DNA of 61,329 nucleotides, the filler included, from Asterionella formosa (taxonomy: Eukaryota): NCBI GenBank assembly GCA_002256025.1. It is 7 parts of 7 records of this genome, joined end to end, with 100 filler letters (N's around TTAATTAATTAA, not from the genome) between each part and the next. Parts side by side here need not be neighbours in the genome. Positions count along the whole stretch, not along the records: positions 8,797 to 17,476 come from NKIB01011812.1; 6 more parts are not named here. The stretch is one strand, 5' to 3'. Position 1 is the first letter of the stretch. Each line of letters opens with the position of its first letter. The notes below the pieces were generated by a model. It was not told the DNA's origin. It did not search any database and was given only the letters and a program-made list of their open reading frames with translations. Below, one piece after another: positions 4,405 through 55,205 of the stretch. The position numbers were made by a program, and so were the translations under genes.

Positions 4405-4680
4405 TACATATAGTTGTAGCTGTGTACTGCACTGGTAATTAACTAGCCCCTTCGACAAAGCTCGCGATGTAGATATACTTGAATACAGGGTAGACTGGGT
4501 ACCTGGTACCAGGTACCGGTACATATAGTCGTAGCTTTGTTGTGCACTGGCACCTTCGACAAAAAAGCTATGTAGCGATGTAGCGGTACTCGTTTGGACT
4601 GGGTAACAGGTACCTGGTACATTAAGTCGTCGCTACGTAGTGCAGTGGTAGTTAACTAGCACCTTCGACAAAGCTCAGTA
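4405..4680. repeat. Degenerate minisatellite, ~2.5 units of ~100-115 bp
   Basis: Units start ACATATAGTYGTAGCT (~4406, ~4521, ~4619), each containing TGCACTGG..CCTTCGACAAA; the first two end in GGTACCTGGTAC. Confidence 0.75.
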
Positions 4681-6852: not shown

Positions 6853-7501
6853 TTGAAACCCTAGGCAAAAATTTATATAATGCTTAGGGTTGCCAAAATT
6901 CCCTGGAATTAAGAATTTAATTACCTATTTTTGAATGACGTGATTCCATTTGAAATATTTAAATTACTGGAAATGTGCGAATACATACATAGATTCCTTA
7001 TCCAATGTGGCCGGCGTGGGTTTGCAAGACCTCGCAAACCAGGCCAATCGAACAGACGAATGTAATTCACGTTCACCAATCATATTATATATCTGGAAGC
7101 GGGCACTTACAATGGAACTTTTTGGACAGGAGATTTTAGGACTAAAAATTCCGGCACACCAATACCATTCAGATGATGACGTTTCGGCAAATAATAATTC
7201 TGATTCCGATATTTTGGTGACCGTAGAAAAGGCCGATTTTGTCGAGTTTTTGGACGACGATAGCTAAACGTTGGCTGGGTCTAACGGCAATTTAGATACA
7301 TGGGTAACTTTCAAATAGCATCAGTATATAACTTCTGGCGCGAAGACTGAATGTAAGCATATGGAAAGGGTGTGTATTGGTGAAAGCTCCGTTGAGCGTT
7401 ATACATATTTAATTTGTATGTGGAAAGTATGTGTTTGATTAGTCTGACTCAATATTAATTTATAAACCCTACCTCGAGCTAGGGGTTCAAATGCAGCAAC
7501 C
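6853..7501 (+). mobile_element. Non-autonomous GGTTGC-ended TIR element, internally deleted copy
   Basis: Near-identical to 38980-40175. Right end CTAGGGGTTCAAATGCAGCAACC|TTAA is the inverse of that copy's left end TTAA|GGTTGCTGGATTTGAAACCCTAG. Confidence 0.75.
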
Positions 7502-7739
7502 TTAAACAACTCGAAAAAAAACGAATTATTATGGCGCACAACTTGATCGCTATGGCGTGAAAATGCCATGGTAGTACTGATGTCGAAAAGTCTTGAAACA
7601 AGCTAATTATTTATATAGCTTCAGCTTTTTCCATGATGTGTTGAAAAAGCCACCATGCAGGTTCATATTGAGTAAAACTGATTTGGACCAAAAAATCGAC
7701 ATCCAATTTTGGGCCACTATAAACAGACAGATTTAATAC

Positions 7740-8040
7740 ATAGAGATGGTAAAATAAGCATCAAACACACGAGAATGGTTGTAGCATGCGATATCAATGA
7801 AAATTGAACATGATGATTGGAGCAACAAAAGTATGTTATGCAATGTAATAAGTAGTGTCAAATGACAAATAAAAAATATTGTTTTGGGTTACAAGAAATA
7901 AAGTAAAAGCTACACAGGCAACATTGCCTTTCCATAACACAATCGAAGAGTGAAATAAAACAGAAACAAGAAAAAAGCTGGACCCAATTGAGATCTGTAT
8001 GGTTATGTAGGGTCGAATAGCTGATTGCTGCAAGAACCAC
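7740..8040 (+). mobile_element. Internal fragment of the CGAG-hairpin element
   Basis: Aligns with ~48105-48235 (+) and ~53190-53520 (-). Confidence 0.7.
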
Positions 8041-8696: not shown

Positions 8697-8796
8697 NNNN
8701 NNNNNNNNNNNNNNNNNNNNNNNNNNNNNNNNNNNNNNNNTTAATTAATTAANNNNNNNNNNNNNNNNNNNNNNNNNNNNNNNNNNNNNNNNNNNN
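8697..8796. other. Artificial scaffold linker
   Basis: 100 bp: N run + TTAATTAATTAA (stops in six frames) + N run. Confidence 0.97.
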
Positions 8797-9257: not shown

Positions 9258-10152
9258 ATCGGGCATACATTACGTAAAATCAATCAATATGTGAACGATC
9301 TAATTTAACATTCTGGTCTCGTAAAAACAATACCAAGTCTACAGATAAAATTTTATAATGTGTTCAAAGTAAGTGTTAATGTTTAGCGTAAACCATGCAT
9401 GGTTGTTTTCAGTACCACGTACGTAGTATGTAGGCATTGTTAAGACCAAATAATCACATGCATAACCGGAGGAAAAACTTGCCGCCAACATCAGATGTAT
9501 TGCTATCATCGTTTGTCGGACGAAATATGGACGATGCAACTACATGGACGATGCGACTAAATGAATACCTCGAGAAGACAAGCAATCCAACAACCAACCG
9601 CACCCATTAGACAACAAATCGCTACTGGTGTCATCACTGAACTGATTTCGCTTCAAACCGGTCGTGATGGACGACGATCGACATGGTGAAAGGCTAATTG
9701 ACAGAGTCCACTCTTCAGGAGACAAACAAAAACGAGGTGAATTCTAGATATAAATTATTCAAATCTGTATATAAAGTGGTTTCTTTAAGTAGACCCTTGC
9801 CAATTTCGGCAATCCCAGGGCTGGAAAACCGAGGGGCAATTGGCGTCTATTGTCTTGCCAAAATGCGAACATATGAAATATACAAAATATATTTTAATGA
9901 TGGGTAATATCGGAACTTTGGGAATTTTCGAGGTGAAGACAGGAAATATATGAAATACACTTTGTATGATGGGCCATAGTAAGATAAAATTGACATTTAT
10001 GCTTTATTTGTGGGCAGTAGGTAAGCGAATGACGCGACGATAGTAGCTAGAGCGGGAATTGCCTCAACAATACCCTTCTCGGTGGCTACTTGCCTTCTCG
10101 TATACATGTGTACTCGCAGGCAAGAGACCACCTCGGGCGTGTATTGCCTTCA
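9258..10152 (+). mobile_element. CGAG-hairpin element, left-truncated copy with collapsed terminal hairpin
   Basis: Colinear with the reverse complement of 33661-34650; ends GTATTGCCTTCA; inner ~100 nt of the hairpin is missing. Confidence 0.85.
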
Positions 10153-10264
10153 GCAAAGCCGCAAGTTGCAGTACTACCTGGTACCGAAAATTATTGGGTG
10201 TTTGGTTCCACGTCGAGAAAAAAGTACAGGGGGGTCCAGGACAATGAAGTATACGGTAGTATAC

Positions 10265-10700
10265 TGAAGGTAAGACACGACCGAGGGTGGAGACTGACTG
10301 CGAGTATTCTTGTGTTCGAGGCTTGGGAGGCCCTCGCAGGTTGACCTTCTCGCAGCGCCGGGAAGCCGAGTACACAAGATTACGAGTAGGCAGACTCCTC
10401 CCGAGTAGGGTCTTACCTAGGCAATTCACAAACTAGCTATTGGCGCGCTTTTCGCCACTACATTGCCCTTTCAGTTAACATTGAAAACATATTTTGCATA
10501 GTTTGTATGTTGGATGCGAACTAGCCAATTGCCCTTCATCTAAATTATATATTGAAAATTTCATGTCTACAGTTTTTGGATTACTCAATCCTGCAATCGC
10601 CCATCATATAAAGCATATTTTGTATATTTCATATGCTCTGTTTTTTTGACTGCCAAGCTACCTTCAATATTTTCAATAGCCCCTAGATTCATGTAAAACC
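10265..10700 (-). mobile_element. Divergent subfamily copy of the CGAG-hairpin element (right end)
   Basis: Starts TGAAGG; hairpin 10270-10416 with three symmetric CGAG pairs; then GCAATTCACAAACTAGCTAT sub-TIR and GCCC(A/T)TCAT repeats as in other copies. Confidence 0.75.
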
Positions 10701-13447
10701 AGTAGAAACGATAACCCTAACCCTTCTGTTGAAATATTTATTGAGCAAAAATGCTTGTTGTTTTGCCATGACAATGGCAATCACCGACCGTCGTTTTTCT
10801 TTGTTCATTGCTGTGATATCATGGATCCATCGCTGGTTCGAGCATTGTAAATGTTTGGACTAATAGAACGCGTCAATGGATCTGCGAGGGCACTCATTCG
10901 CATTGCGTTTTGAGCGATGCATATTAACATTGGTGTTGCAACAAGCGCCACCAACAAACAACTTCCTAATACTAAGCGAAATACACAGGAAAATTGTTCA
11001 CAAGTGAAGGAATGGACCAGTACAAGTATGATGAACCTCAAAACTAATGATAACAATTAATTAATAATGTACAGAAATAAGTGGAAAGCGAAGCTAGCTT
11101 GCTAAGTTCAATGATATAGCTCCAGTGCGAATCCTTTGTGGGGGAGCATTACAATGCTTGACTTTGCAAAAATTATATCCAAGTATGTATGGCAAATAAT
11201 GATGACCAAAATGCAATGCATTTGAGATACAATCACCCTGCTTCCTATTCTTTCCCCTGAANNNNNNNNNNNNNNNNNNNNNNNNNNNNNNNNNNNNNNN
11301 NNNNNNNNNNNNNNNNNNNNNNNNNNNNNNNNNNNNNNNNNNNNNNNNNNNNNNNNNNNNNNNNNNNNNNNNNNNNNNNNNNNNNNNNNNNNNNNNNNNN
11401 NNNNNNNNNNNNNNNNNNNNNNNNNNNNNNNNNNNNNNNNNNNNNNNNNNNNNNNNNNNNNNNNNNNNNNNNNNNNNNNNNNNNNNNNNNNNNNNNNNNN
11501 NNNNNNNNNNNNNNNNNNNNNNNNNNNNNNNNNNNNNNNNNNNNNNNNNNNNNNNNNNNNNNNNNNNNNNNNNNNNNNNNNNNNNNNNNNNNNNNNNNCA
11601 AATAGAATCGTAAATCAATTATTTTTATTACACTAATATTGACCACGAAAGCTGAAATCGCCGATGGCACAATTTCTAATTAATCTATAGCTGCACAATT
11701 CAAAACGACGCTGTTGCAAACAGATTTGACATTTTATCAGTTGCTGAAAAATGAATAAGACGAAGACTATAACAATGAGATGATTAGTTGAAGCAAAGGC
11801 TGCTATAATAATTAGTTATCAACTGAGAATTGATTGACTGTATCACCGGCAATTTGTTTAATCATGGATGCCGATATTGGCGCCGACAAATGCATGTGCT
11901 CTTCTTTGGCAGTTGATATCGAGGAAAAATGTGGTGATAGGAGTGGAAAATCGAAATGAGGGACTCTGTATTTAATTATGCGGTGAGCAGACCAGCATAA
12001 CATTGCCGTGAAGCGACGTATCTTATTTAGCCATAATACTGTGAAGGCTAGTTGGTAAAAAAATTGTTGCGAACTCACATAATTATTTGATAAGTAGAAT
12101 AAATTTTGGTTTGACCCAAATAAATTCCCAAAAAGTAGCATAATATTTTAGAAGAGTAGAATAAATACGTCACTTTAGACATAAATTCGTAAAAGTGCCG
12201 TAATTGGCGTCTTAGATGTAGTAGTACCACTGGAACTACTTTGACCTTCTATCACAGGTGATGATGTCCAATAAAATGCAAGTTCCGGTATATATAGCAC
12301 AAATCAGCATATTCTTCCCCAGTTAATCCGCGCTATCGGCCTTTGCTGGTTTGCAGGCGGAAACCTCATAGACCTTCATCATGTCCATGGAATTTCTTAT
12401 CCGTCTGATTATGCAATCACTCAAAAGTTTTTTGATGCGCTGAACTTGTGCAGCACTTTCAATTAAATTCCCTGTAACAATTAGTGATGAATAGATTTCT
12501 TGAAGAAATTGCGCATCAACTATTTCGCAGATGCGTTGGTGCTATACGTTTTTTGAATGACTTTTTGTTCTAATCCATGATTATATCTCAAAGGTCAACA
12601 CTCTTTAACCAATTCTTAATAAGCGTAACATTTATGTATCCGCCGACTTAAATGTTAGTGATATCTGTGGAATGGACATGTCTTTGGAGAAATCCGTCAG
12701 AAGGTCTGGTAAAACACGGTGTTTACTTAAACAAAATTCAGCTAAATATCTAGATTACGGGACCTTCCAACACGGGAAGGAGTACGAAGCTTTTAACATA
12801 CATAAACATGTGACATGCATTTATTAAAATAAGGCATGATGTACCGGTATTTTAGTCTTTGATCGCTCCCCCGGTACCAGGACCTGGTACCTGGTACCAG
12901 TACCCTTGTATAGCAATAGCATCGCATCGATTTTAACTGTATTTACCAGTAGATGGTACTAACTACAGTTGTGTGGTATGCGCGTACCAGGCCACTATAA
13001 TTACGACTTAATACCAGTAGGTGCGCAGAAACTCGCCTCGCAACGGTTTATACCGATTTCGCTTACGTAGAAATTTTTGAATGCAAAACTGTGCGTTCTA
13101 ACACATCGATTTGCTCTTCCAGTCGTCGCTCGGGCCGATACGAGCACGAAGCGGCAAGGAGATCAATATAAAATGGAATTCATTTATTATACATCGTGAC
13201 AAAGTAAAAATAAAATAAAAATCCAATAAAGCAAAAGTTAAAACCAAGCCAATAAGCAACAAAACATCAACACAGCCAAATCCAGTGCCAATTATTATTA
13301 CACACTTGTATACATATGAGTGTGTCTCCGAGAAACATCTACTCTACCCGGTAGGCTACCGGTACTTTGGCGCCTTTCAATCAACCAAATTCATTCCATT
13401 GCCAGTTTACAACTAGACGGGATTAATGACCAACCGCCCTATTCAAT

Positions 13448-17476: not shown

Positions 17477-17576
17477 NNNNNNNNNNNNNNNNNNNNNNNN
17501 NNNNNNNNNNNNNNNNNNNNTTAATTAATTAANNNNNNNNNNNNNNNNNNNNNNNNNNNNNNNNNNNNNNNNNNNN
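17477..17576. other. Artificial scaffold linker
   Basis: N run + TTAATTAATTAA + N run, 100 bp. Confidence 0.97.
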
Positions 17577-18640: not shown

Positions 18641-21234
18641 GTGCGTCTAATTGAGTCTATCAAATCTGATAGACTAAATATAAAATCTCCCCCTTCCAAA
18701 GCAAAAGCAAAATGTAAATTAAAGGCAACTACAGACATGGTTGCCAATCCGGAAGAAGCAGTCCATGACTTGTCACCAAAGAGTTCCGAAATTGTAGGAG
18801 TGATTGGAAAAGGAAATTTAAAAAACAGGTCGAGGAGGAAAGTGATTTGTCCCATTTATCTAGTAAGGAGTTCGAAATATTGAAACAGGACATGGTCTCC
18901 AGTCTTCTGGATGTAGTTCATGGGTGCATTTGGTGGCATATTGTTGTCTTACTGATGTGGTCTAAAATCTCGAAGAAAGTGAGTTTTCCATAAATCATCG
19001 CTGGTCCTTTATGATTCCAAAATTTCCTTGAAGTTTCAAATGATGTTTTGTTAAACAAGCCAGACTCTAGGACCACCTAGAATTTGTTGAGAAAACAAAA
19101 TCCATGACACTTTCATCTAGTCTTGTCATCTCCTTGCCTTTGTCATCATGATCAAAGTATCTAACCAGTAAGAGTCATTCCTTACTCTTCTGTTGTCTCA
19201 TGAACAGACATAAAATATGCCATAGAAACACGTTTTCCCTGATTGAAAAATCTGCGATCGGTATCCCCTTCACAACCAAGATCGTTCCATTCCTTGTAGC
19301 ACTCGGCCGGAACATTTGCCATTCCAGATAACAAGTGATATATGGCGCNNNNNNNNNNNNNNNNNNNNNNNNNNNNNNNNNNNNNNNNNNNNNNNNNNNN
19401 NNNNNNNNNNNNNNNNNNNNNNNNNNNNNNNNNNNNNNNNNNNNNNNNNNNNNNNNNNNNNNNNNNNNNNNNNNNNNNNNNNNNNNNNNNNNNNNNNNNN
19501 NNNNNNNNNNNNNNNNNNNNNNNNNNNNNNNNNNNNNNNNNNNNNNNNNNNNNNNNNNNNNNNNNNNNNNNNNNNNNNNNNNNNNNNNNNNNNNNNNNNN
19601 NNNNNNNNNNNNNNNNNNNNNNNNNNNNNNNNNNNNNNNNNNNNNNNNNNNNNNNNNNNNNNNNNNNNNNNNNNNNNNNNNNNNNNNNNNNNNNNNNNNN
19701 NNNNNNNNNNNNNNNNNNNNNNNNNNNNNNNNNNNNNNNNNNNNNNNNNNNNNNNNNNNNNNNNNNNNNNNNNNNNNNNNNNNNGGAATAGGTACAGTTT
19801 CACAGTACTGGGTATTCGAATTCCTGTGAAGTCTTGTATATTTAATCTAATCATACATACTGGTAGGGTATTAAATGTTCCTTCGAAAAAGTTACTAGAC
19901 ATACAGAGATGTGTGTTATACACACTTTTTGAAGAAGAGGAAATGTTGAGATATTGTTAAAAAATTCATGCCAGTAGTGCATTCTATTCCACATAACAAA
20001 CTGATGAGGGAATGGTGATAGAGAGCCTTCTACCAGCATCAAACCAACCGGTGGGAAGAGGTAAGTTTTATGATTGTTTTGCTTCTCAACTGTGGCTGGC
20101 TACCAAGGGGCTTATGATTGGTACTGTGTGAGACCGGAAGCAAACTATAAAATTGTATCGCTGTTCATGTGCGCTGCTACCACTCAAAGTTTCTACACTT
20201 CCTCAGGACGAACGATAAAAAATCAACCTAATTACGAGGTAAGAAACCGCACTTTATAACTTTGTGCACAATGCTGCAGAGGGTTGTGTCCAATAATTTG
20301 AATTTCGACATTAATAACATCTTTCCCTTCCACATATGCAGATGTGAGGGTTAACAACGCTACCTGTCACCCTTCAATCAACAGTGAGAGCATAGGTAAG
20401 ATACTATACTCTCATTCTCTTTATGTCGATTAGAACGACGTGAAGTTACTATAAAGATTGTTTATGTCATCAGTTAGTGGCACATGTGTGGCTGGAGATG
20501 CTTTAATTGTTGCAACACTTTTGCTAACATTGATATTATCTCCTCAGAATCATACAGGAACCTTTGAGGATGTGGCTTGCTACCATTCTTAATGGAAGCA
20601 ACAATCAACAATGAGAGCACAAGTAAGTTATATGCACATTGCCTGCTCATACGGAAATTGGAGTGATGGATTGTTCATGTGATCGTTTCTTTGCACCTAT
20701 CTTCGTTTAGATGCCTTGCTTACTTGATGCAACAGTTTTGCTAACATTGTTGTTATTATCTCTTACAGGAAAGTCGTACAAGGAGAACATTGGAGAATGT
20801 GACTTGCTGCCATTTGCAATGGTAGAGGTTCGAATAAAGCATCATCATTTTTGTTTACTCTCTCATTTCATTTTGAATTGGCAATGATCTAAACATAGCT
20901 AGCTACTGGAAGTGAAAATTAAGGTATTGAAGACCACTGTGTGCTCATTCTGATAGAGGATACACAGTGGAAAGTATGGGTGACCAGAAGTAGAATATTT
21001 GAGTATTAGCTAAATAGCAATCCATTTAATTCGATTTGTGTTCATCATTGATCAAACATGATAATAGGTTTGATCAATGAGAGAAATAACTTAGATCAGT
21101 AGTAATGAACGTTAGATCCAGAGATAAAAATTCTATTTGATATTAGCATTCCAAAGGTTAGACTGAATGAATAACTGATTTGATCTCACAATTACTATCT
21201 TTAGATCGAACTCCAAAACGTTAGTTGATATAAA

Positions 21235-26252: not shown

Positions 26253-26352
26253 NNNNNNNNNNNNNNNNNNNNNNNNNNNNNNNNNNNNNNNNNNNNTTAA
26301 TTAATTAANNNNNNNNNNNNNNNNNNNNNNNNNNNNNNNNNNNNNNNNNNNN
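26253..26352. other. Artificial scaffold linker
   Basis: N run + TTAATTAATTAA + N run, 100 bp. Confidence 0.97.
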
Positions 26353-31599: not shown

Positions 31600-33650
31600 C
31601 GGTAGCCGCTTTGCCTAGGACTCCTGTTTACTACACAACTCTTTTGTGGTGGGCTAAGTAGACACCTAGTAGTGTAGGTGGTAACGCTGTTTGATGGTGG
31701 TAATGGCGGGTTTACTAGGGTTTCCGACACCTTTGCACCACCGTACACAGAGTCCATGGACTAGGTTTCCGCCCTATGGGCTATAGGCTAAACCGGGGTG
31801 GGGCTGCCGTTAGGGGGCGATTGGGTTGGGTAGGTCGACCAGGGCGTTGGGAACATCCTGGCCGGGAATGAGAGTGTAGGTGCCCCCCACAAGCATGTGG
31901 CGGGCAAGGTCTTGCATAACTGGCTGGGCCTGTAGGTGTAAGTACTGCAGTATTTCTTTAGATTGCCAGCGGCCAATTACTAAGCGAATGCGGTTGGTAT
32001 CAACATGCGCGCACAGTAGAGCCATAGCGCCGACCCCCGGAGTGATCAGGCACTCACATCAGAGGGAAGAAAACCTAAGGATGATCCGATGAGGGCTGCA
32101 GAGGCACAGAGTGCAACGGTGATATTGGTGGCCATAATGTACGTCCAGCGGTGATTGTGGTGGCGGCCATTGAGGAGGGGGGGGGGGGGGGGGGTGGGGG
32201 CGGGGGGGGGGGGAAAATAAAGGATTCGCTGCGCAATAGCCCGGACAGGGCAGGCATGCTGGTGTCCGCTGCACTGGTGACCGATAACTTCACCACGAAC
32301 GCCACTTTTTTGGTTGGTAAAGTGAGAGAGGCGAAAGTGGCAAGGGCGAGGTCAGCCAGGGGACACTGCAGATGTAGAAGGCGCTGGGTACCAATCCAGA
32401 GTTGAACGTCCTGGAGGCGAAAAAGGGAAAATTGGTGAATGTCCTCGGCATGGGGGAGACCTGTGTATTCACCGGACCGCATGAGAAAAAAATATCCTAT
32501 AAATGCCATATCTGAAGTGGCCTAACCGGTGGGGTTGGTAGTGGTCATGGCCTGTGTGTGGGCATGGAGGAGGAGCGGGAGTGGGATGGGTTTGACACGC
32601 GAGGGGGGCGAGTCAAGTTTTCCGTAGAATTTTTGTTGGCGAAGAAGACGGAAGTCTCCAAAGGGTTTAGATGAGGGTCTGGGGACCCCAAGCTGGAGTA
32701 CGTCTGCGCAATCTGACGCACGGCATCTTCCACTGTGCAAGACCGAACCTGTTGTCTGGAGGGGGAGATCTAGCCAGTCTTGTGCAGCCGGGATTTGTCG
32801 GCTCACTACCATGGCGGCATAACGGGGTGGTAAATATACGATACTTCGCACTGTAAAGTAGTCAGTATATTGACCATAAAGGGAGTTTCCAGCTGCATCA
32901 GACATGGGGCCCATGAAATCTCCCTTTTCATCAGAGTGCGGCTCCCAATTGGCTAGTGCTTCATCCATGATTGGGAGGGTGGGAGCATACACCGAACCTG
33001 CAACAGCAAATACCTCGGGAGCGATGTGCACCAAGGGTATCTGGTTTGCGGTGATGTCTCCAAGAATTCCGAATAGTTTGTTATCCCAAGGGGAGGATTC
33101 GGTGAAGGATCCCGGGTAGCGGAAGATACGATGCACACAGGCGATGTTTCCTGTGTCATTCACGCGAATGGCGACAGCGAAAGCTTGATGCGTGGCTGGT
33201 TTCACCGCCAATAACTATTCTGTTTGCCAATTTTGTGGCATTGAGCACCTCCGGACCCAAAGCGGAAGTGACCTCATAGATGCGGCGATAATCACCATCA
33301 AGGCAGTCGAAGTCCGGGTCTCGGAAACACATGGCGTAATCGCCCATAGACGTCATTTCACGAGTGGTGTGACACTCCAGTTCGATACGTGTAGGAGTCG
33401 ACTGTGAAGGAGGAATGCAGCTGCGCAGTGGCGAAGCAAATGGATGACAGGAAGTTTAATCTTTTTTCGGACGACCGTCTTGGTGTATTTCCGCGATGTT
33501 ATCCTTCCGTGGGCTCCTGAGCTTGCTTTCGTAGTCAGCACTGCTCGAGCCAGTCTTCCGTTTCAACAAGGTTGCTTTCGAAGTCAGCGGTTTTGATGAA
33601 ATAATGATTCTTTTTTCTTTTCAACTGCCGGAGGTTGAGGTGTGTGGTGC
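31600..33650 (-). mobile_element. Tyrosine-recombinase (DIRS-order) retrotransposon, degenerate internal-deletion derivative
   Basis: GC-rich island. Gag-like ORF1 fragments (~33350-32770) join directly to YR fragments: EDAVRQIAQTYSSLGSPDP, DSPPSRVKPIP, IGYFFLMRSGEYT, SA*SLR.GAMALL, GRWQS..LQYLHLQA. Stops and frameshifts; no RT/RNase H seen. Boundaries approximate. Confidence 0.75.
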
Positions 33651-33660
33651 TGGGGTGTGC

Positions 33661-35024
33661 TGAAGGCAATACACGCCCGAGGTGGTCTCTTGCCTGCGAG
33701 TATACATGTGTTCGAGGCTGGGTGGCGCGAGTAGGTTGACCGTACGAGTGGCGCCCCCGGCGCTGCGAGAAGGTCACCCTACGAGTGCCAACCCAGTCGA
33801 GTACAAATGAATACGAGAAGGCAAGTAGCCGCCGAGAAGGGTATTGTTGAAGCAATTCCCGCTATAGCTATCGTCGCGTCATTCGCTTATCTACTGCCCA
33901 CAAATTTAGCATAAATGTCAATTTTAGCCTACTATTGCCCATCATATAAAATATATTTTGTATATTTCCTATCTTCACCTCGAAAATTGCCAAAGGTCCC
34001 ATATTGCCCATCATTAAAATATATTGAATATAAATTATGTTCGTATGTTCGCAAGACAACAGACACCAATTGCCCCTCGGTTTTCCAGCCCTGGGATTGC
34101 CGAAATCGGCAAGGGGTCTACTTAAGGAAACCATTTTATAGACTATACAGATTCGAGTAATTTATATCTAGAATTCACCTCGTTTTTGTTCGTCTCCTGA
34201 AAAGTGGACTCCGGCAATTCACCTTTCACCATGCCAATCGTCGTCCATCATGACCGGTTTGAAGCGAAATCAGTTCCGCGATGACGCCAGTAGCGATTCT
34301 TTGCCTAACGGATGCGGTTGATTGTTGGATTGCTTGTCTTCTCGAGGTATTCATGTATTCGCATCGTCCATATTTCGTCGGACGCACGATGATATCGATA
34401 CATCTAATGTTGGTGGCAAGTTTTTGCTCCGGTCATGTATGTAATGATGCTTAACGGATATTCTACCGGTACCGGCAGTCATCTAGTCTACATACGTACG
34501 TGGTACTAAAAGCAACCATGCATGCTTTAACGCTTACTTTGAACACGTTATAATATTATCTCTGTAGACTCGGTATTATTTTTACGAGACCTGAAATGTT
34601 GAATTATATCGTTCACATATTCATTGATTTTACGTACCGTATGCCCGATTTCGTCCTCACAAATATAGTTCTCACTCTATCTTGCCTGCCTTTGCTCTAT
34701 TCGGGCTTGCAATAGGCAACGTTCGTCTTTCTTTTATCCCATCGTCTGCTGCTTGTTATGCTAGTTGAAGCGGATCGGTGAGTACAACAGTGAAATACTG
34801 AATGTGGATTGTAGATCGTATTTATCGGGCCGACTTTCCGATTTGATTGCTTCCGTGGTTTGTTTTGATCGCTTCCATCGTTGTTTGTTGTTACGCACTG
34901 TCGTTTTGTTTCGATTGTACATATCTACATGAGAACCAATGCATTTATCAATGACTACTCATTGAAGATGTGGTATTGTGCCGTTGTTGATCGTATTTGT
35001 TGATTTGTATAGTCGTTGACAATG
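33661..35024 (-). mobile_element. CGAG-hairpin element, right part with intact 180-nt terminal hairpin
   Basis: TGAAGG terminus, hairpin 33667-33846, sub-TIR 33852-33875; body shared with 9258-10152; 34632-35024 overlaps 52671-52932. Confidence 0.88.
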
Positions 35025-35124
35025 NNNNNNNNNNNNNNNNNNNNNNNNNNNNNNNNNNNNNNNNNNNNTTAATTAATTAANNNNNNNNNNNNNNNNNNNN
35101 NNNNNNNNNNNNNNNNNNNNNNNN
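35025..35124. other. Artificial scaffold linker
   Basis: N run + TTAATTAATTAA + N run, 100 bp. Confidence 0.97.
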
Positions 35125-35448: not shown

Positions 35449-36959
35449 CTTGATTGGTATTACTGATGCAACGAATGATCAGCTGACTAAAAAACAAAGC
35501 ACCGGTAGGTGGGTGTTAAAAATACTTTTACAATGAGCAGATTCATTTATCGACTCTTTTTTACACGACCCTCGCGATGTATTTCTCTACCTGGTACCTT
35601 GTACCAGCTGTTGGATGAAGTGAAGTGGCCCATGGGCGGATACAGATAAAATAATACGGACACCAGGACATGTACAAATTCTACATAGCACAAATGTATT
35701 ATCTCGCTCCGCAGGATATTCTGAACCACAGCAGAAAACAACACGACTTGAAGGAAATGGTCTGTGTGAGAAAGAAGGCTGCGCGTGCATCGTTTTCAAC
35801 GTCATTGTTGATATTGCTTTGAGTTCGGTACCAGGTACCTAATTAGTGACACCTGGTAGACTCCCGGTACCAGGTACCTGGTACATTGTCTAACATGCGA
35901 AACACCGGCCGTATCGGTATGTTGAAATAGCGCGCAGCAGTACTGCCCTAGAAATACCGGTCAAGATCTTTCTCACGCCTCTCGTCTGCAGATTCTTCTG
36001 ATATATAAATCCTGTCTATTTCCGTTTAGAAATTCCTCAGACTACGTAGTCTTCGAACACCTGTCGACATCAACAGCCTAACAAACACACTCTGACAGGC
36101 CTGACAGACAGACACACTCTGACACCCTCCCCTGTTGGAGGGTTGATGCTCGACATACCACATCATCCTAATCTGTGATAATGTGTATGCTCGACACATC
36201 CTATCCTACAGGAATTTTTTTTATATGTAGTCCTCTCTTTTTTCTTCGTCTCTGTTTTTCTGACGAATTGTATAATGCATGAAGAAAACAAGTGTGTGAA
36301 TTAAAAAAAATTGTACACAATATTTTTACATGAAGCGGTTGTGGCAGTGCACCTGCAATCATGATGATAGCAGCCAGCCATGCATGCAGTTGTGAATCAA
36401 TGGCTAAACACAAGGCCACTCAAGTTATCTTAGTACTAACACTACTTATACTACTAAACCACTTACTGTTCCACTTGCATGGAATTCTATACGGAGCGAA
36501 TTATCATACTGACATGGCTAACCCTATTCATGTTTTCTGCCTTGCATGCATTTTTTTCCTCTACAAATCCATGGGTTAACCCTATGACGATGTCTGGTTA
36601 GGGTACTGTGCCTAGGGCCAAACCTGCCAACTTTTATGAATCTACCCAGGAAATTTTAGTGGTCATGAACCCTCCTGCTGGTCAGCTACTAGTGGCCTAC
36701 CGGTATGTGCCTAACAAAAACCAGCCGAATGCTGAACAGATTGCACATGTGCAACAATACCAATGCTATTTTTATATATACATGACGAAACTTTGAATAT
36801 TTCTCATGTCAGTAATCACCTGGATATCATTTGTTTTTTACAGGACAATTATGGTCTGAATACCGCCTTTTTTGTAAATGCGGGATATTCCAATTGCATA
36901 GCAGAATTTGAATTCAATGCATCCCATGCATGATCTCACTGAATTATCATACCTACTCC

Positions 36960-38979: not shown

Positions 38980-40175
38980 GGTTGCTGGATTTGAAACCCT
39001 AGGCAAAAATTAAAATATTGCTTAGGGTTGGCAAAATTCCCTGGAATTAAGAATTTAATTAGCTATTATTGAATGACGTGATTCCATTTGAAGTATTTAA
39101 ATCAGTGGAAATTTGCGAATACGTACATAGATTCCTTGTCGAATTCGCTAAATATATATATATAGACGCTCTGAGTCGCTGGATGTATAACGGTATATGC
39201 GCTAAAAGTACGATCAACATGTATGCATGGACAGTCTATACCGGTACTCCGATTAACGAATTTATATGCTATGCATTGAATCCGTTCGACATATTCAAAT
39301 CGTTCAATATATATATACACATTTAGATTCTGCATCGCTTCATGTGCATACACCAGTACTACAATCTATACTCCGATCGACGACCATGGGTCATGTATAC
39401 GACCCTGCGGCTCGGCAAATATTTGGAAGTGCACTCAAGGAGCGGTCCGCGTATGTGCAATGATGATCATTTACTGGTTCCTGGTTCCCTGGTACCCGTC
39501 GAGAATATAGAAACGGACTGTCAGTACACCCAAGAAAATATTACATGTTTACAGTGTGGCCGGCGTGGGTTTGCAAGACCTCGCAAACCAGGCCGATCAA
39601 ACAGAGGAATGCAATTCACGTTCACCAATCATATTATATATGTGGAAGCGGGCACTTACAATGGAACTTTTTGGACAGGAGATTTTAGGACTAAAAATTT
39701 CGGCACACGACTACCGTTCCGATGATGACGTTTCGGCACTTAAAAATTCTGATTCCGATATTTTGGCGACCGTAGAAAAGGCCGATTTTGTCGAGTTTTT
39801 GGACGACGATAGCTAAACGTTGGCTGGGTCTGACGGCGATTTAGATATATAGGTAACTTTCAAATAGCATCAGTATTTAACTTCTGGCGAGAAACTGCAG
39901 AAAGGAATTTCGGTTTTTTTACTTTGCCAAATAAACAGATTTCCCCCGAATTTTCGAGTTTTTTTTAGCATAGTTTAAAAACCGAAGTTCCTTTCTGCAG
40001 TTTCTGACCAAATCCTATATACTGACGATACATAGAGTGAACCTACACCCCTATTTTGTCCGAAGACTGTATGTAAGCAAATGGAAATGATGTGTATTGG
40101 TGAAAGCTCCGTTGAGCGTTATACATATTTACCGGTAATTTGTATGTGAAAAGTATGTGTTTGATTAGTCTGACT
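38980..40175 (+). mobile_element. GGTTGC-ended TIR element, longer copy
   Basis: TTAA|GGTTGCTGGATTTGAAACCCTAGG left end; colinear with 6853-7452 plus extra segments ~39137-39553 and ~39889-40060, the latter containing a 29-bp inverted repeat. Confidence 0.78.
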
Positions 40176-43799: not shown

Positions 43800-43899
43800 N
43801 NNNNNNNNNNNNNNNNNNNNNNNNNNNNNNNNNNNNNNNNNNNTTAATTAATTAANNNNNNNNNNNNNNNNNNNNNNNNNNNNNNNNNNNNNNNNNNNN
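43800..43899. other. Artificial scaffold linker
   Basis: N run + TTAATTAATTAA + N run, 100 bp. Confidence 0.97.
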
Positions 43900-47578: not shown

Positions 47579-47931
47579 TGGGGATCAAATCTAAGAACGT
47601 GAATGCTAACTGAACGCCCCCAAGCGTCCCTGAGAAAACTGGTACCAGGTACCTATGCTCGAAAGAAGACAGTACCAGGTACCCTGGTAGACACGATCGC
47701 ACGAAGTGATCCAGCGAACAAAATTGATTACCGGTACTTTATTATATGTGCATGTATATATATGAAAGGAGTGTGTGCTTGGTCCTCAGCAGGATCTTGT
47801 TTGTTCATTTTCGTTCACGTGCTGGCTGGCAGACCAACGGGCAAACTGAATGCTGGCTGTGCCTCTTATTTTTCCATTGTTCCCTGATATGCACACCGGT
47901 GCACCGGCATGTACATTAAGAATATGTATCA

Positions 47932-49157
47932 GCAATTCCTGCTCCAGCTTATCGTCTTGCCACTCGGGCACTTCTAAGTAAATTTTAGGCTCTAAGTAAT
48001 TTGTTATGTAATTTTTAAATAGGGGAAATATGGGGCACATCGAATTATTCCGCATTAATTAACATTGCAGATTTTAGCATGACAGCCAGAATAATGGTAA
48101 TATGCAGAGAAATGGTAAAACAAGTGTCAAACACACAAGAATGATTGTAGCATGCAAAATCAATGAAAATTGAACATGATGTTTGGAGCAACCAAGAAAG
48201 CATGATATGTAATGTATAATAAGTTGCTTCAAAATATAATTTATCATTAAGATAATGCCGACCCTACAGCAATAACATTATGATGTGTTCAAAGTACACG
48301 TTAAAGTTTAGCTTAAACCTTGCACAGTTGTTTTGAGTACCATTCATGTACTATATAGGCTATATGACTAGAATATCCGCCTGTTAGAGCACATAGTAAA
48401 TGACCGGAGCAAAAGCTTTCTGCCAACATCAGATACATTGCTATCATCATTTGTCTGCAGAAATATGGACAATTCGACTACATGAATCCCATGAGAAGAC
48501 AAGCAATCATCCAACAACCAACCGCATCCTTTTGACAACGAATCGCTAGCTACTGGCTGGTGTCATTTATAAATTCATTTCGCTTCAGACTGGTCATGAG
48601 GAACAACGATCAGCATGGTGAAAGGTGAATTGCCAGAGTCAGATTTCAGGCGACAAACAAAAATGAGGGGAATCCTTAATTTATTTTAAACAAATCTGTA
48701 GAATATATAAACATGTTTTCCTTAAGTAGACCCCTTGCCGATTTCGGCAATCCCACCAGGGCTGGAAAACCCATAAACTGTCTTGCCGAAATGTGTTAAT
48801 GATGGGCAAGAATATTGGACCTTGGCAAGATTTGATGAGAATATAGGAAAAATACAAAATTTATTTTATATGATGGGCTATAGCAACCTTAAAATGACAT
48901 TTACACTCAATGAGTGGGCAGCAGGCAAGCAAATGGCGCGATGATAGCTAGTTTGTGAATTGCCTCAACAATAACCTTCTCGGTGGCTACATGCCTTCTC
49001 ATTTACATGTGTACTTGGTTGGGATGGCACTTGTAGGTTGACCGTCTTGCAGCAGTGCTGGGAGCGCCACTCATACAGTCAACCTACTTGCGCCACCCAC
49101 CCTCAAACACATCAATACTCACAGGGATGAGACCACCTCGGACTTGTATTGCCTTCA
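47932..49157 (+). mobile_element. CGAG-hairpin element, copy with both ends (~1.23 kb, internally deleted)
   Basis: Left end GCAATTCCTGCTCCAGCTTATCGTC; sub-TIR ~48935-48963; decayed hairpin ~48969-49151; end GCCTTCA; no TSD. Confidence 0.85.
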
Positions 49158-51268
49158 GAACAAGCCGAGAATGACAGTATGCTCACCGGTAACTGGTACC
49201 AGTAACCAGGTACCTGGTACTTGTAGGTACATACAACGACAGCTCCTCCCATTGTGCGCATGCGCATGATTACAGGCAGGACATCAAGAAATCATTTTGC
49301 TTGACTGGCCATGACAGCATGGCAACTTTCAGATGTGTACTGCTATACGATTGCCTGCGTGAACACATAAAATTCCAAGGCTGAAAATTTTAACGCTTTC
49401 GAGCTGGCATGCCAATTCATTTTCTATAAATATGATCACTTTGGCAGATATAGCAAAATGGTTTTGATTTGGCAGATTAAGTAAACTTCACTCAAATCGA
49501 GTAATGACCCAAAGCAGGACAGGCATTTAAATAAATAGAAAACATCATCAATTAACTCTTCAAATTTTTCAGTGGTATGATCACCACTTATTGACTTACT
49601 AGGTTTTATGCTAAGTTTATTCTTCAAAAAGGGAAACTTGAAACATGATAGTGACCAGGGCAAGAATAGAGGGGCGTTCTGAAGCAATAGTAAGCAAAGT
49701 AAGAAACTCAAAATCATTCTCCTATCCTGGCCGAAGTGGCTGATGAAAGTAAACTATCTTAATTAACGGTTTCAAAGTCGTTGGGATTTTGGAAATTTAT
49801 AACTGCCAGCATCATCACCATACTAGCTAATACCCAACATAACTATTAACAGCGATGATGATTTTGTCACTGAAGAGGAAGATGAAATAGATAAATTATA
49901 GATAAATTTTTTTCAATTACCTCAAATAAGAAGAATAGTAGAAAAATCGCAAGAATCATCATCATCAAGGTCATTGAATTCTCATGTGAACAGGACAGCT
50001 GACGATGCGACAATGGCATTTTCTGCGGCATCGAATAACTTGATGAACTTACAAAACTGTTATTGCTGAGCAAGAGGAGCCGAAGGAAATTGAACGAGAG
50101 TTAGACTTTGTACTACTAGCTGAGGAAATCAAGGGCAAGAAGTATATTGATCCTTAGAATATAAGAAGAAAGAGGGAGCGAAGGTTTGCATTTATCAGTT
50201 ACATGAGCAATGGCTTGAATAAGAAACTGGGCGGAGCATTCAAATCATGTTCATTTGCGAGCTTCTGATGATACTCCTGAATCAATTGGTGACAACAGGG
50301 ATGACTATAATACTAGTGAAAGTGATCATGATAATAATTACTAAGATTTGAATCATATATTGATGATAAAAAAGCTATCATATGAGATAAAAATTGAGGT
50401 AATTCACTTCAATCGAGCTGTGCATGATTTTTGTTATTTATATTGCCATAATTTGCCCTGTTGGTGGTGCTGAAACCAGCAAGCACCTCAAAGATTGCCG
50501 AGGGCGCAACAATTGAGCTGCTTCAAGGACAATAGAGATCTTTTTCTGATAGGGTAATCATTGTGATCCATTATAGCTTCTGGAATTGGTATATTTATAG
50601 GCTCCTCCGAAAATCATACTTCATCCTGACGATGAATTTTATCGTCACATCCACCAATATTACTACATAGTATGGTTCTAGATCTTTCCACTCGAGTTTG
50701 GCTGCTGGCTCTAGTCCTTAATAATTTAATAGGTGCAAATACTTTTCTGTTTCTACTTGGTGTTGGTGATGCACATTTACCTTTTCTGTGTTGCCGAATT
50801 CTAATGGTATAACCATCGAGGTCAATCGATAGCACCAACACAGCAATGTAATTAATTCCGACTTTATCCATTTCATCAGGAGCAACTTGCAGGAAGCAAA
50901 GATGCATGGAAAGGAAACATTTAGTTTAGCTTATAATTTAGTTTGAGTTTAGATTATCAATCGAGGAAACAGTGTGTTAATTGACAGGAAGGTCAATTAC
51001 TTTATCTAGCAGGGACAAGGCTAGAAGCAGAGAAGAGAGATAAAGCAAGTGGTACTACTAGGTAGTACTACAAGCACGTAAGAGCCTACGTGAAGAGAGA
51101 TCCAGCCTGCAGGAAGAAGTACGGACCTTTTCAACATACCAGTACCATACGATGCATGCCCCTCCTACAAATTCTACATAGATAAATATTTTTGAGACAT
51201 GTGCTGACAGGTAATACAATGCCAGCACATTCCTCACAGAGGCAGGTTGTTTGATAAATACCAGGGTA

Positions 51269-52570: not shown

Positions 52571-52670
52571 NNNNNNNNNNNNNNNNNNNNNNNNNNNNNN
52601 NNNNNNNNNNNNNNTTAATTAATTAANNNNNNNNNNNNNNNNNNNNNNNNNNNNNNNNNNNNNNNNNNNN
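52571..52670. other. Artificial scaffold linker
   Basis: N run + TTAATTAATTAA + N run, 100 bp. Confidence 0.97.
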
Positions 52671-53687
52671 ACGTACTGTATGCCCGATTTCGTCCTCACA
52701 AATATAGTTCTCACTCTATCTTGCCTGCCTTTGCTCTATTCGGGCTTGCAATAGGCAACGTTCGTCTTTCTTTGATCCCATCGTCTGCTGCTTGTTATGC
52801 TAGTTGAAGCGGATCGGTGAGTACAACAGTGAAATACTGAATGTGGATTGTAGATCGTATTTATCGACTTTCCGATTTTATTGCTTCCGTGGTATTGTGC
52901 CGTTGTTGATTTGTATAGTCATTGACAATGATGTCAATATTGCTGCCAAGCAATGCTTTTCTTGCACTAACGCGCTTTGCTACATTTCTACTACGAGTTT
53001 GTATCAGAAACTACAAGACGAATACTCAGCTAGAGAGAGTCAATAGTTCTGGAGCAGTGTGGCGATCACGCTTGCTCAGAATGGAATGATCAGGGTTGCT
53101 TGTTTGGTGGGCAGCGGAGAGGAATGACTGTGGCGGAAATACTGCTACTGGTGTCAAGCTACTACAGCGATGCGCATGGTTGCAGAAACCAGACCATTTA
53201 CGCTACATAACGATGTAGGTCAAGATTGGGTTTAGCTTTTCCCTTCTTATTTCGGTCTTCGATTGTGTGGTGATGGAAAGTCAATGTTGCCTGGTGTGTA
53301 AGTACTACAATGATTCACAATGCATTGCTACGTCTCCATTGGAACTCTTATTTTTTATTTTATTTCTAACCCAAAACAATTTTTTCTATTTCTCATTTGA
53401 TGCTACTTATTACATCGCATTTCATACTTTGGTTGCTCCCAACATCATGTTCAATTTTCGTTGATGTTGCATGTTACAATCATTCTCGTGTGTTTTACGT
53501 TTGTTGTACCATCTCCATGCATATTACCGTTATTTTGGTTGTCATGCTAAAATCGGCAATTTTATTGCCGAAAAATTCGATGTGCCCCATATTGCCCTTA
53601 CATAAAAATTACTTAAGAAATAACTTAGAGACTAAAAATTACTTAGAAGTACCCGAATGGCAAGACGATAGCTGGAGCGGGAATTGC
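52671..53687 (-). mobile_element. CGAG-hairpin element, left part of a long copy
   Basis: 52671-52932 nearly identical to 34632-35024; left terminus ..GACGATAGCTGGAGCGGGAATTGC at 53687. Confidence 0.82.
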
Positions 53688-54015
53688 TGAAGGAATCAAG
53701 ATTCCCTGGTCCCGCCTCAGTCATCATTGACTGCGTCAAAGTGGTCAGACATGCACAGCATTGAATTTTTAGTACTCTTGCTGCGTAGAATAAAATATTC
53801 TCGTAGATTTTTGTAATAAGTGTACCTTAGTTGCAAAGTGTGACTTACTACCTGTATTTGTGTTCCAAGTACCGGTACCCCGGTGAGGGAATGATTAGTT
53901 CGCACTGTTCTGACCAGGTGGGTGGGACTTAGATGTGACGCATGGCTCGTCTACTTAGTAAAGTGCTCATCTGCACTTATGTCCTCGTTTTCATTGCGTT
54001 ACGTCTCACCAACAA

Positions 54016-54597
54016 GCAATTCCCGCTCCAGATATCGTCTCGCCATTCGGGTACTTCTAAGTAATCGCTTAAGTAATTTTTATTTATGGTCAATAGAGTA
54101 TTTAAAATGGTTTCCATAATTATACCCCTTGCCGATTTCAGCAATCCCAGGGCTGGAAAACCGAGGGGCAATTGGCGTAAATTGTCATTCCAAAATGCGA
54201 ACATACGAAATATACCAAATTTTTTTTAATGATGGGCAATATCGGGCCTTTGGCAAGATTTTATGTGACAATAGGACATCTACAAATTTATTTTACCTGA
54301 TGGGCTATAGCAAGAAGCAAAAATGACATTTACGCTCAATGAGTGGGCAGTAGGTAAGCGAATGGCGCGATAATAGCTAGCTTCTTGTGAATTAGCTACC
54401 TCAAAAATACCCTTCTCGGTGGCTCCTACTTTTCTTCTCGTTTACATGTGTGCTCTGCTGCGATGGCAGCCATTCGTAGGGTGACCTTCTGACAGCGCTG
54501 GGGGCGCCACTCGAACGGTCAACCTACTTGTACCACCCAGGCTCGAACACATGTATACTCGCAGGCAAGAGACCACCTCGGGCTTGTCTTGCCTTCA
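54016..54597 (+). mobile_element. CGAG-hairpin element, minimal copy with both ends (~580 bp)
   Basis: GCAATTCCCGCTCCAGATATCGTC left end; hairpin ~54405-54591; end GCCTTCA; no TSD. Confidence 0.85.
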
Positions 54598-54684
54598 CCA
54601 ATTCACAACCTATTTCATAGCTATTCTCGTCTTGCTATTTACTTACCTATACTATCCTGCCCACCCACTGAGCATACCGGTAAC

Positions 54685-55205
54685 TATCATTTTTAGCTGG
54701 CTATTGCCCATCATATAAAATATTTTTTTGTATATTCTTATCTTCACATCGAAATTTGCAATATGGCCGATATTGCCCATCATTAAAAAATATTTTTTTG
54801 GACATTCGTATGTTAGTATTTTGGTAATACAATTTGCGACAAATTGCCCCCTGGTTTTTCATGCCTTGGATAGCCGAATATCGCAGTGGGACTTCTGGAA
54901 ACTATTTCATATACTCTACAGGTTTGATCAAAATGAATCTAGTACTATTCACCTCATTTTTGTCAGTCTCCTGAAAAGTGACTCTGCCAATTCACCTTTC
55001 ACCATGCCGATCATCATCCATCATGCCCAGTCTGAACTAAAATGATTTCATAAATGACACCAGTAACAATTCATTGTCAAATGGATGCGGCTTGTTTTTG
55101 GATTTCTTATCTTCTCATTGGATTCATGTAATCGAATCATACATGTTTCGTCAGATGAATGATGATTCTAGTATATCTGATGTTGGTAGCAAGTTTTTGA
55201 GCCAG
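54685..55205 (-). mobile_element. Internal fragment of the CGAG-hairpin element
   Basis: Aligns with ~33915-34435. Confidence 0.75.

Follow-up and report, generated by a model that had tools for sequence, protein, structure and literature searches.

Covarying arms and mirror-registered CGAG motifs in an end-hairpin of a dispersed non-coding repeat of the diatom Asterionella formosa

The segment at 10265–10420 of the Asterionella formosa DNA studied here is best explained as one copy of the structured module that ends a mobile repeat, non-coding and abundant in this freshwater diatom, the copy belonging to a divergent subfamily. The two arms of the hairpin have changed together relative to the family, while the CGAG motifs that face one another across the stem, and the spacing between them, are invariant between the two lineages. 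The structure is real and non-random and probably functional, the evidence for selection coming from few sequences. To our knowledge, diatom mobile elements are poorly characterised apart from LTR retrotransposons. The finding concerns neither a host gene nor a new defence or regulatory system. Rather, the survival of pairing, spacing and G·A motifs through ~27% change points to a specific recognition step, which could reveal how the element moves and which protein reads the hairpin. A natural array of five identical symmetric tandem-G·A loops would also be a clean test case for the role of such loops in vivo, the present support coming from very few sequences.

The window, that is, the whole stretch of 61,329 nucleotides (filler included) that was analysed, consists of seven ~8.7-kb pieces of assembly GCA_002256025.1 connected by linkers of 44 N, TTAATTAATTAA and 44 N. 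The linkers occupy 8697–8796, 17477–17576, 26253–26352, 35025–35124, 43800–43899 and 52571–52670, and further runs of N are found at 11262–11598 and 19349–19784. The features discussed below are collected in Table 1.

Table 1. Features of the hairpin and of the repeat in the window
Feature	Position	Strand	Remarks
Divergent hairpin copy	10265–10420	+	from TGAAGG up to the final base preceding GCAATTC
5′ arm	10282–10320	+	CGAG at 10282, 10301 and 10317 (motif positions)
Apical-module remnant	10323–10362	+	in inverted (flop) orientation; CTCG at 10333 and 10349; second arm deleted
3′ arm	10367–10405	+	CGAG at 10367, 10383 and 10402, in mirror register to the 5′ arm
Conserved frame GCAATTC... after the hairpin	10421–10447	+	present in all complete copies
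Short hairpin, apical part deleted	10063–10152	−	head-to-head with 10265–10420, 112-nt spacer
Repeat copy of the short hairpin	9258–10155	−	83% identical to 33798–34649
Full-length hairpin	33661–33851	+	ten CGAG in five opposed pairs (motif positions, fold)
Reference repeat copy	33658–34649	+	sharp boundary at 33658; body with 68-nt subrepeats and ATTGCC repeats
Decayed repeat copy	48228–49162	−	hairpin 48964–49157
Partly decayed copy	54094–54600	−	hairpin 54400–54597, 6 of 10 CGAG kept
Hairpin-less inverted partner copy	54681–55208	+	makes 54094–54918 a long imperfect palindrome
Frame sequences as 51-bp inverted repeat (96%)	53638–54065		around a different, unique ~320-nt centre starting TGAAGG

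The divergent hairpin copy and the covariation of its arms

An earlier note had placed a hairpin at 10270–10416 and had described three CGAG motifs of one arm opposite three of the other. The hairpin is real, its true span being 10265–10420, and the motifs were found on the plus strand in exactly this register (10282 opposite 10402, 10301 opposite 10383, 10317 opposite 10367), with outer coordinates that sum to 20687 for all three pairs. The start-to-start spacings of 19 and 16 nt are, as had been claimed, those of the reference hairpin (33678, 33697 and 33713; 33798, 33814 and 33833). CGAG triplets at 10–25 nt spacing number 13 in the window against 0.17 expected, a count reached in none of 100 shuffles, and all 13 lie within copies of the same hairpin. 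The predicted RNA fold of 10260–10425 has an energy of −71.7 kcal/mol (z = −4.83), equalled by none of 200 shuffles. Among the motif pairs, only the three basal ones are kept in this copy, the two apical pairs of the family being absent.

For the comparison of the arms, the family consensus served as reference, from TGAAGG as far as the third CGAG and over the mirror stretch. The copy differs from the consensus by 30 substitutions at 111 arm positions (13 of 56 in the 5′ arm, 17 of 55 in the 3′ arm), a divergence of ~27%, with zero indels, whereas the repeat bodies are alignable only in fragments. The 24 letters of the CGAG motifs are untouched by any of these 30 differences (hypergeometric P = 1.7e-4), despite the CpG in every motif, which is the very site lost by decayed copies. 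Counted as pairs, both sides differ at 11 positions, the 5′ side alone at 2 and the 3′ side alone at 5, with 33 unchanged (Fisher P = 5.6e-6, a statistic that, like those from shuffling given below, ignores kinship). Nine of the 11 double changes end as Watson–Crick pairs (P = 1.3e-4 at a 25% chance rate): seven retain a pair and two create one, the other two breaking a pair. Together with two single-side changes, the latter bring the pair-breaking changes in this copy to four. The double changes are spread over three separate stems. Those at arm positions 23–30 and their partners form one block of eight adjacent positions, which may have arisen in a single event.

Both stem changes quoted in the earlier note proved real. 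The replacement of CAATAC/GTATTG by TAAGAC/GTCTTA comprises two double compensatory changes and two changes from G·U to G–C, and the second comprises two compensatory flips from A–U to U–A and one change that breaks a pair. The copy used there for comparison, 33661–33851, carries in its 3′ arm three private mutations (33791, 33806 and 33810), as all contigs over these positions from four other runs read T, C and T, and these family letters restore base pairs.

An alignment of seven sequences, from which a locus with only 65 nt of the hairpin (L002) was excluded for the pair counts, gave both-side changes at 8 pairs against 2.7 ± 1.2 in shuffles, with none of 500 shuffles reaching 8, and 93.4% of cells paired against 90.5 ± 0.6; effectively two lineages are being compared here, since one divergent copy set against one family supplies almost all of the covariation. 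When the 3′ partners were slid by 1–3 columns, just 1–3 both-side pairs were obtained and 32–43% of cells were paired. RNAalifold independently returned the same fold with 69 pairs, 8 of them compensatory.

That the arms changed together while the mismatch motifs stayed fixed argues that the fold matters to the repeat. The earlier description of this copy is thus confirmed, and the interpretation given to it, that structure and the G·A motifs but not sequence are selected, is partly supported. Selection on structure and motifs agrees with the covariation, with the untouched CGAG letters and with the absence of indels. The exclusion of sequence does not hold: long stretches adjoining the motifs are invariant, so that conservation covers sequence as well as structure, and the signal derives from effectively two lineages. 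As for drift of the GA positions, they are constant between the two lineages, and CGAG is lost by CpG decay in inserted copies. A further position on the basal side is non-Watson–Crick at all three motifs in both lineages.

The same data bear on the possibility that the hairpin is a neutral relic of one ancestral inverted duplication, in which a few multi-base events mimic compensation and CGAG is kept by way of conserved flanks. The unrestrained decay of inserted copies, the long invariant stretches around the motifs and the restriction to two lineages would all suit such a relic. Nevertheless, we regard it as very improbable, for it would account poorly for the Watson–Crick outcome of nine of 11 both-side changes in three separate stems, for 24 unchanged letters in motifs that contain CpG, for arms free of indels next to fragmentary bodies, and for the same four letters at all 10 mismatch sites of the family form.

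Fold, strand asymmetry and apical module

The family form of the hairpin, represented by 33661–33851 and by two metagenome contigs (L001 and L005), has five CGAG in the 5′ arm opposite five in the 3′ arm. Each opposed pair of motifs consists of C–G, G·A, A·G and G–C. The stems between them have 5–13 pairs, with a longest Watson–Crick run of ~13 bp, and the motifs recur every 15–19 nt along a predicted rod of ~95 bp, the hairpin being ~190 nt long. On the basal side of every motif lies the further non-Watson–Crick position, which is C/A, G/A, U/U, G·U or a 3x2 loop. The RNA fold of 33655–33855 has −104.6 kcal/mol and z = −9.22.

A self-opposed 5′-CGAG-3′ forms a tandem G·A loop of the pyrimidine-GA-purine type, with stable sheared G·A pairs in RNA and DNA model duplexes studied by NMR and thermodynamics, and CGAG opposite CGAG is the context in which tandem G·A pairs cost the helix least. 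This YGAR arrangement occurs at five opposed pairs in 33661–33851, L001 and L005 and at three in 10265–10420, and by analogy with the model duplexes a sheared geometry would be expected there. As in those duplexes, the four letters face one another identically with C–G closing both sides; unlike in them, the loop recurs five times at regular intervals within a long natural hairpin and is accompanied by the extra basal position. Kink-turns have a three-nucleotide bulge directly 5′ of tandem G·A/A·G pairs, with canonical helix on one side only. The diatom motifs resemble kink-turns and box C/D-type G·A motifs in setting tandem G·A/A·G beside a helix, but they are symmetric 2x2 loops closed by C–G and G–C, and because they have no 3-nt bulge they are not kink-turns. 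Covariance models of Rfam 15 gave no match over the entire window at the gathering score. At E ≤ 5, two matches were obtained over 33400–35024, with 13–18 bits against gathering cut-offs of 50 and 70, which is chance level.

With RNA parameters, the CGAG strand folds far better than its complement: −104.6 against −76.8 kcal/mol for 33658–33855, −109.9 against −84.0 kcal/mol for L001, and −108.0 against −83.6 kcal/mol for L005. The family hairpins contain 8–10 G·U pairs on the CGAG strand and 2–3 on the complement. DNA parameters still favour the CGAG strand, with a smaller gap of 5–8 kcal/mol. The fold is strongly strand-specific and is thus what one would expect of a single strand with defined polarity, whether RNA or single-stranded DNA. 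The copy at 10265–10420 owes its strand bias entirely to the G·A motifs, because it has just 2 G·U pairs.

The apical remnant of this copy matches the family module in 36 of 40 columns as reverse complement and in 26 of 37 columns in forward orientation. The stretch between the third CGAG pair, 10321–10366, includes the loop, which reads GGG, and then jumps to the 3′ arm. From these alignments, the apical module has not merely diverged from that of the family but was inverted, and its second arm was then deleted, which is why CTCG stands at both apical sites where the family has CGAG; with this module inverted and half deleted, the copy itself may be dead. Symmetric losses of the apex are common. 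They occur also in the window copy 10063–10152, and contigs from other samples show the joints 33696>33813, 33706>33811, 33709>33811, 33710>33812 and 33711>33797. Apical inversion and symmetric apical losses together indicate that DNA-level palindrome dynamics act on the hairpin, and since contigs often come without the apical part, the apex is dispensable or unstable.

The dispersed repeat in the window and in other samples

Self-comparison of the window revealed a dispersed non-coding repeat, at least 1 kb long, whose first ~190 nt are the hairpin. Four of the seven pieces carry the repeat, with five hairpin copies in the window, and a search of the whole window with the first 22 nt, allowing ≤3 mismatches, returned exactly these five known starts. 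The hairpin begins the repeat in all five window copies and in three metagenome loci, the divergent repeat copy starting at 10264 (+), and in every complete copy the conserved frame follows the hairpin and precedes the body. The far end is variable, lying at the equivalents of 34147, ~34603 and 34649 or beyond 35024, and it adjoins different other repeats.

The inserted copies have decayed to different degrees. CGAG has changed to TGAG or CAAG at 8 of 10 motifs in the hairpin 48964–49157, 4 of 10 motifs are changed in 54400–54597, and one is lost in L005. TGAG and CAAG in the decayed copies are the signature of CpG deamination. As inserted copies lose CGAG by such decay, any constraint acts on the source copies of the element and not on this locus.

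Ahead of the hairpin, or of the site where it would stand, the frame is present in inverted copy in L001, at 54601–54640 and at 53638–53690, and lengthens the stem by 35–56 bp; it is absent in the other five copies. The whole of 53638–54065 folds with −190.7 kcal/mol (z −12.5) and has the appearance of a related element with another core. Five ATTGCC words in one orientation are found at 33934–34101, just inside the hairpin, and a perfect 16-nt palindrome at 34097–34112 is conserved in three copies. These words, the 68-nt subrepeats and the palindrome resemble the subterminal protein-binding repeats of DNA transposons. The window further holds two head-to-head pairs of copies, 10063–10152 (−) with 10265–10420 (+) and 54094–54600 (−) with 54681–55208 (+).

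Several of these features would be expected if the hairpin were a duplex DNA palindrome, the centre of a foldback or TIR element or a cruciform, with arms kept alike by arm-to-arm templated repair or recombination and with CGAG as a short protein-binding word kept in one orientation; selection on a fold would then play no part. The inverted apical module of the 10265 copy, the symmetric apical deletions in the window and in other samples, the long inverted frames, the head-to-head pairs at 10.1 kb and 54.6 kb, and the co-oriented ATTGCC words, placed like subterminal transposase sites, all point in that direction. We nevertheless think it distinctly improbable. Templated correction would erase mismatches, yet six basal CGAG stay non-complementary, in mirror register, through ~27% divergence. 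Neither the excess of G·U pairs on one strand nor a strand gap of up to 28 kcal/mol is expected for a duplex. Moreover, the second frame arm is absent in most copies, and neither a target-site duplication (three copies) nor a transposase (58 ORFs) was found.

A structural pattern of 21 letters hit six loci in a metagenome scan. L001 and L005 contain the full hairpin and 700–750 nt of the body at 90–93% identity, and L002 has only the first 65 nt of the hairpin. The other three (L003, L004 and L006) were excluded as chance matches in GC-rich, bacterial-looking DNA. The region 33600–34650 is at least partly present in 20 of the 24 public runs listed, from 15 studies, one of these runs being possibly the source of the window. 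The runs with the element are mostly freshwater metagenomes, and six of them (5 studies) are RNA libraries that contain it in part.

Contigs from three RNA runs and one DNA run were aligned on 32000–35024. Those that match rightwards from 33658 and have unlike left flanks number 28 in X15, 6 in X17, 4 in X3 and 1 in X16, the left flanks in X15 having a consensus agreement of 0.36. Because many contigs diverge leftwards at this point, 33658 is a true sharp end of the dispersed repeat. Contigs from RNA libraries span the hairpin, for instance record 9 of X16 (33658–33876, 6 differences); they attest the presence of the element without strand information and are not proof of transcription. From a poly(A) RNA library comes a contig of 3567 nt that matches the unique sequence 32769–33663 with 4 differences. 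The match ends 6 nt into the repeat, and past 33663 the contig continues unlike the window, which may reflect an allele without the insertion or a splice. There were no matches in a viral contig collection scanned with three patterns, nor in a pattern scan of prokaryote genome contigs, and a full-text literature search, judged by titles and abstracts, gave nothing on such a hairpin or repeat.

Other repeats lie beside the element. GGTACC occurs at 46 sites in the window against ~9 expected from composition, often in runs of GGTACC(A/T)GGTACC in non-coding DNA, with clusters at 1477–1523, 4498–4517, 12873–12898, 35827–35878, 47641–47683 and 49195–49214. In four of eight copies, repeats of this type lie ≤45 nt outside the hairpin end; the runs may serve as a favoured target of insertion, or they may be the element's tail. 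A second repeat, called 'X', is present at 53255–53693, 47929–48233 and 7736–8033 and, in reverse complement, at 1–439 of L001, the copies of L001 and of piece 7 being 97% identical. It stands directly before the hairpin in L001 and directly after the far end of the repeat at 48228, and a longer, sometimes tandem unit or two nested elements would explain this placement. The end of piece 4 (34632–35024) and the start of piece 7 (52671–52930) are 96% identical and represent either a further repeat or the same element continuing where the piece boundaries have cut it.

Class of element, possible role of the hairpin and surrounding sequence

The class of the element can only be suggested by likeness. 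A constant hairpin end combined with a variable far end fits rolling-circle-like copying or 5′-truncating reverse transcription, and the inverted frames fit a TIR or foldback element. Pfam searches of 58 ORFs of the window (12 + 46) found no reverse transcriptase, transposase, Rep, recombinase or integrase domain and no partner protein for the hairpin, and inspection of three copies by eye revealed neither a target-site duplication nor a common far end.

Helitrons begin with TC and end in CTRR, carry a short hairpin 10–12 nt upstream of the 3′ terminus and, when autonomous, encode a Rep/helicase. The end of the present repeat reads TGCTGAAGG, and CCTTCAGCA on the other strand, and no Helitron-type Rep/helicase occurs among the 58 ORFs, so this assignment was rejected. 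LTR elements have TG...CA ends, two direct copies around an internal region, a PBS and PPT, and a target duplication. The repeat starts with TG, and no common CA end, direct pair, duplication, reverse transcriptase or integrase was seen. In non-LTR retroposons, a constant 3′ end with a tail is accompanied by variable 5′ truncation; here the hairpin end is constant and the far ends vary, no poly(A) or reverse transcriptase was seen, and the non-LTR model would put the weaker-folding strand in the RNA. TIR transposons, MITEs and foldback elements are defined by terminal inverted repeats at both ends and a target-site duplication. Inverted frames, of 35–56 bp, were seen at L001, 54601 and 53638–54065 only, and no duplication was seen. 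Some diatom copies do resemble foldback, long-TIR or MITE structures in being centred in longer inverted repeats, but most are one-armed and the central hairpin retains systematic non-complementary positions.

Hairpins at the ends of mobile elements are well known, among them the Helitron 3′ hairpin, the imperfect palindromes of IS200/IS605 and the 3′ stem-loops of stringent LINEs and SINEs. The diatom structure is like these terminal or subterminal hairpins in being a strand-specific imperfect hairpin at a repeat end, and the repeat is like non-autonomous elements with end hairpins in having one constant end, that of the hairpin, and one variable end. It differs from them in that the hairpin is five to ten times longer, the repeat lacks poly(A) and termini of the CTRR or TC type, and no reverse transcriptase, Rep or transposase lies nearby. 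We know of no periodic G·A motif described for Helitron, IS200/IS605 or LINE/SINE hairpins. Set beside these known hairpins, the diatom one appears to be distinguished by its length, its regular array of a single tandem-G·A motif and its host. The terminal hairpins of parvovirus type have mismatched bubbles that give polarity, and occur in flip and flop forms. The diatom hairpin is likewise long and terminal, with conserved mismatches that confer polarity and one apical module in flop orientation, but unlike the parvoviral hairpins its basal part is oriented one way only (7 of 7 copies), it lies within a diatom nuclear genome, and the viral collection was negative.

By a small margin over even chances, we favour the view that the hairpin forms the end-module of a non-autonomous mobile element and is read as the folded single CGAG strand, with the G·A loops as marks. 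The fold, its strand asymmetry, its position at the sharp end of the repeat, the covariation of the arms, the constancy of motif and spacing in both lineages and the decay in old copies are the observations on which this proposal builds. The hairpin would then be a single-strand terminal recognition rod, of RNA or single-stranded DNA, and the G·A loops would be docking or identity marks for a machinery, encoded elsewhere, that copies or moves the element. The loops could at the same time prevent the duplex from forming either a perfect palindrome or a long stretch without mismatches, while the fold stays stable. Five identical loops with two-fold symmetry are candidate docking sites of a dimeric protein as well as a mark of polarity, and recognition of the hairpin by a protein is plausible on these grounds. 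Constraint would act on source copies only, and inserted copies such as that at 10265 would decay afterwards.

Of the two possible forms of the rod, an RNA transcript would be slightly preferred over a single-stranded DNA intermediate. The chances that the CGAG strand acts as RNA seem evenly balanced, this form being suggested by the larger strand gap with RNA parameters, the many G·U pairs and the six RNA libraries. Single-stranded DNA is a possible though unlikely form, suggested by the variable far end, a tandem-like junction in L001 and the DNA-level flips. Carried further, and with considerable doubt on our part, the hairpin could be an undescribed nucleic-acid rod in which evenly spaced CGAG/CGAG loops of two-fold symmetry dock a dimeric protein that mobilises or packages non-coding elements widespread in freshwater diatoms, the G·A array marking strand polarity and keeping the duplex too short to be detected by RNA interference or by nucleases that cut palindromes.

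The long imperfect stem, with no Watson–Crick run above ~13 bp, and the presence of the element in RNA libraries are also what one would see if the hairpin RNA were used by the host, as a small-RNA precursor or an RNA-interference decoy, and kept for silencing balance rather than for mobilisation. A silencing role, however, leaves both the fixed position at the terminus and the exact motif unexplained, and we give it very little credence.

As to the remainder of the window, no tRNA gene was found and long ORFs are few. A repeat finder listed the linkers both as inverted repeats, perfect over 100 nt, and as a 'family' with 102 copies. The Pfam domains in the ORFs are of eukaryotic host type only (DIRP, Mito_carr, SNF2 and RINGv/zf-MYND). 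The mitochondrial carrier ORF has 500 relatives at E ≤ 0.001 among 1250 candidates. Few organism names appear among the 120 matches listed for it; they are diatoms, at 68–73% identity, the relatives named among these matches being Amphora coffeaeformis, Seminavis robusta and names that begin with Asteri... and Extub.... This indicates a stramenopile host, most likely a diatom. Two copies of an unrelated repeat family, 92–94% identical, lie at 6853–7302 and 38991–39851, and a weak match to this family is found in L002 too.
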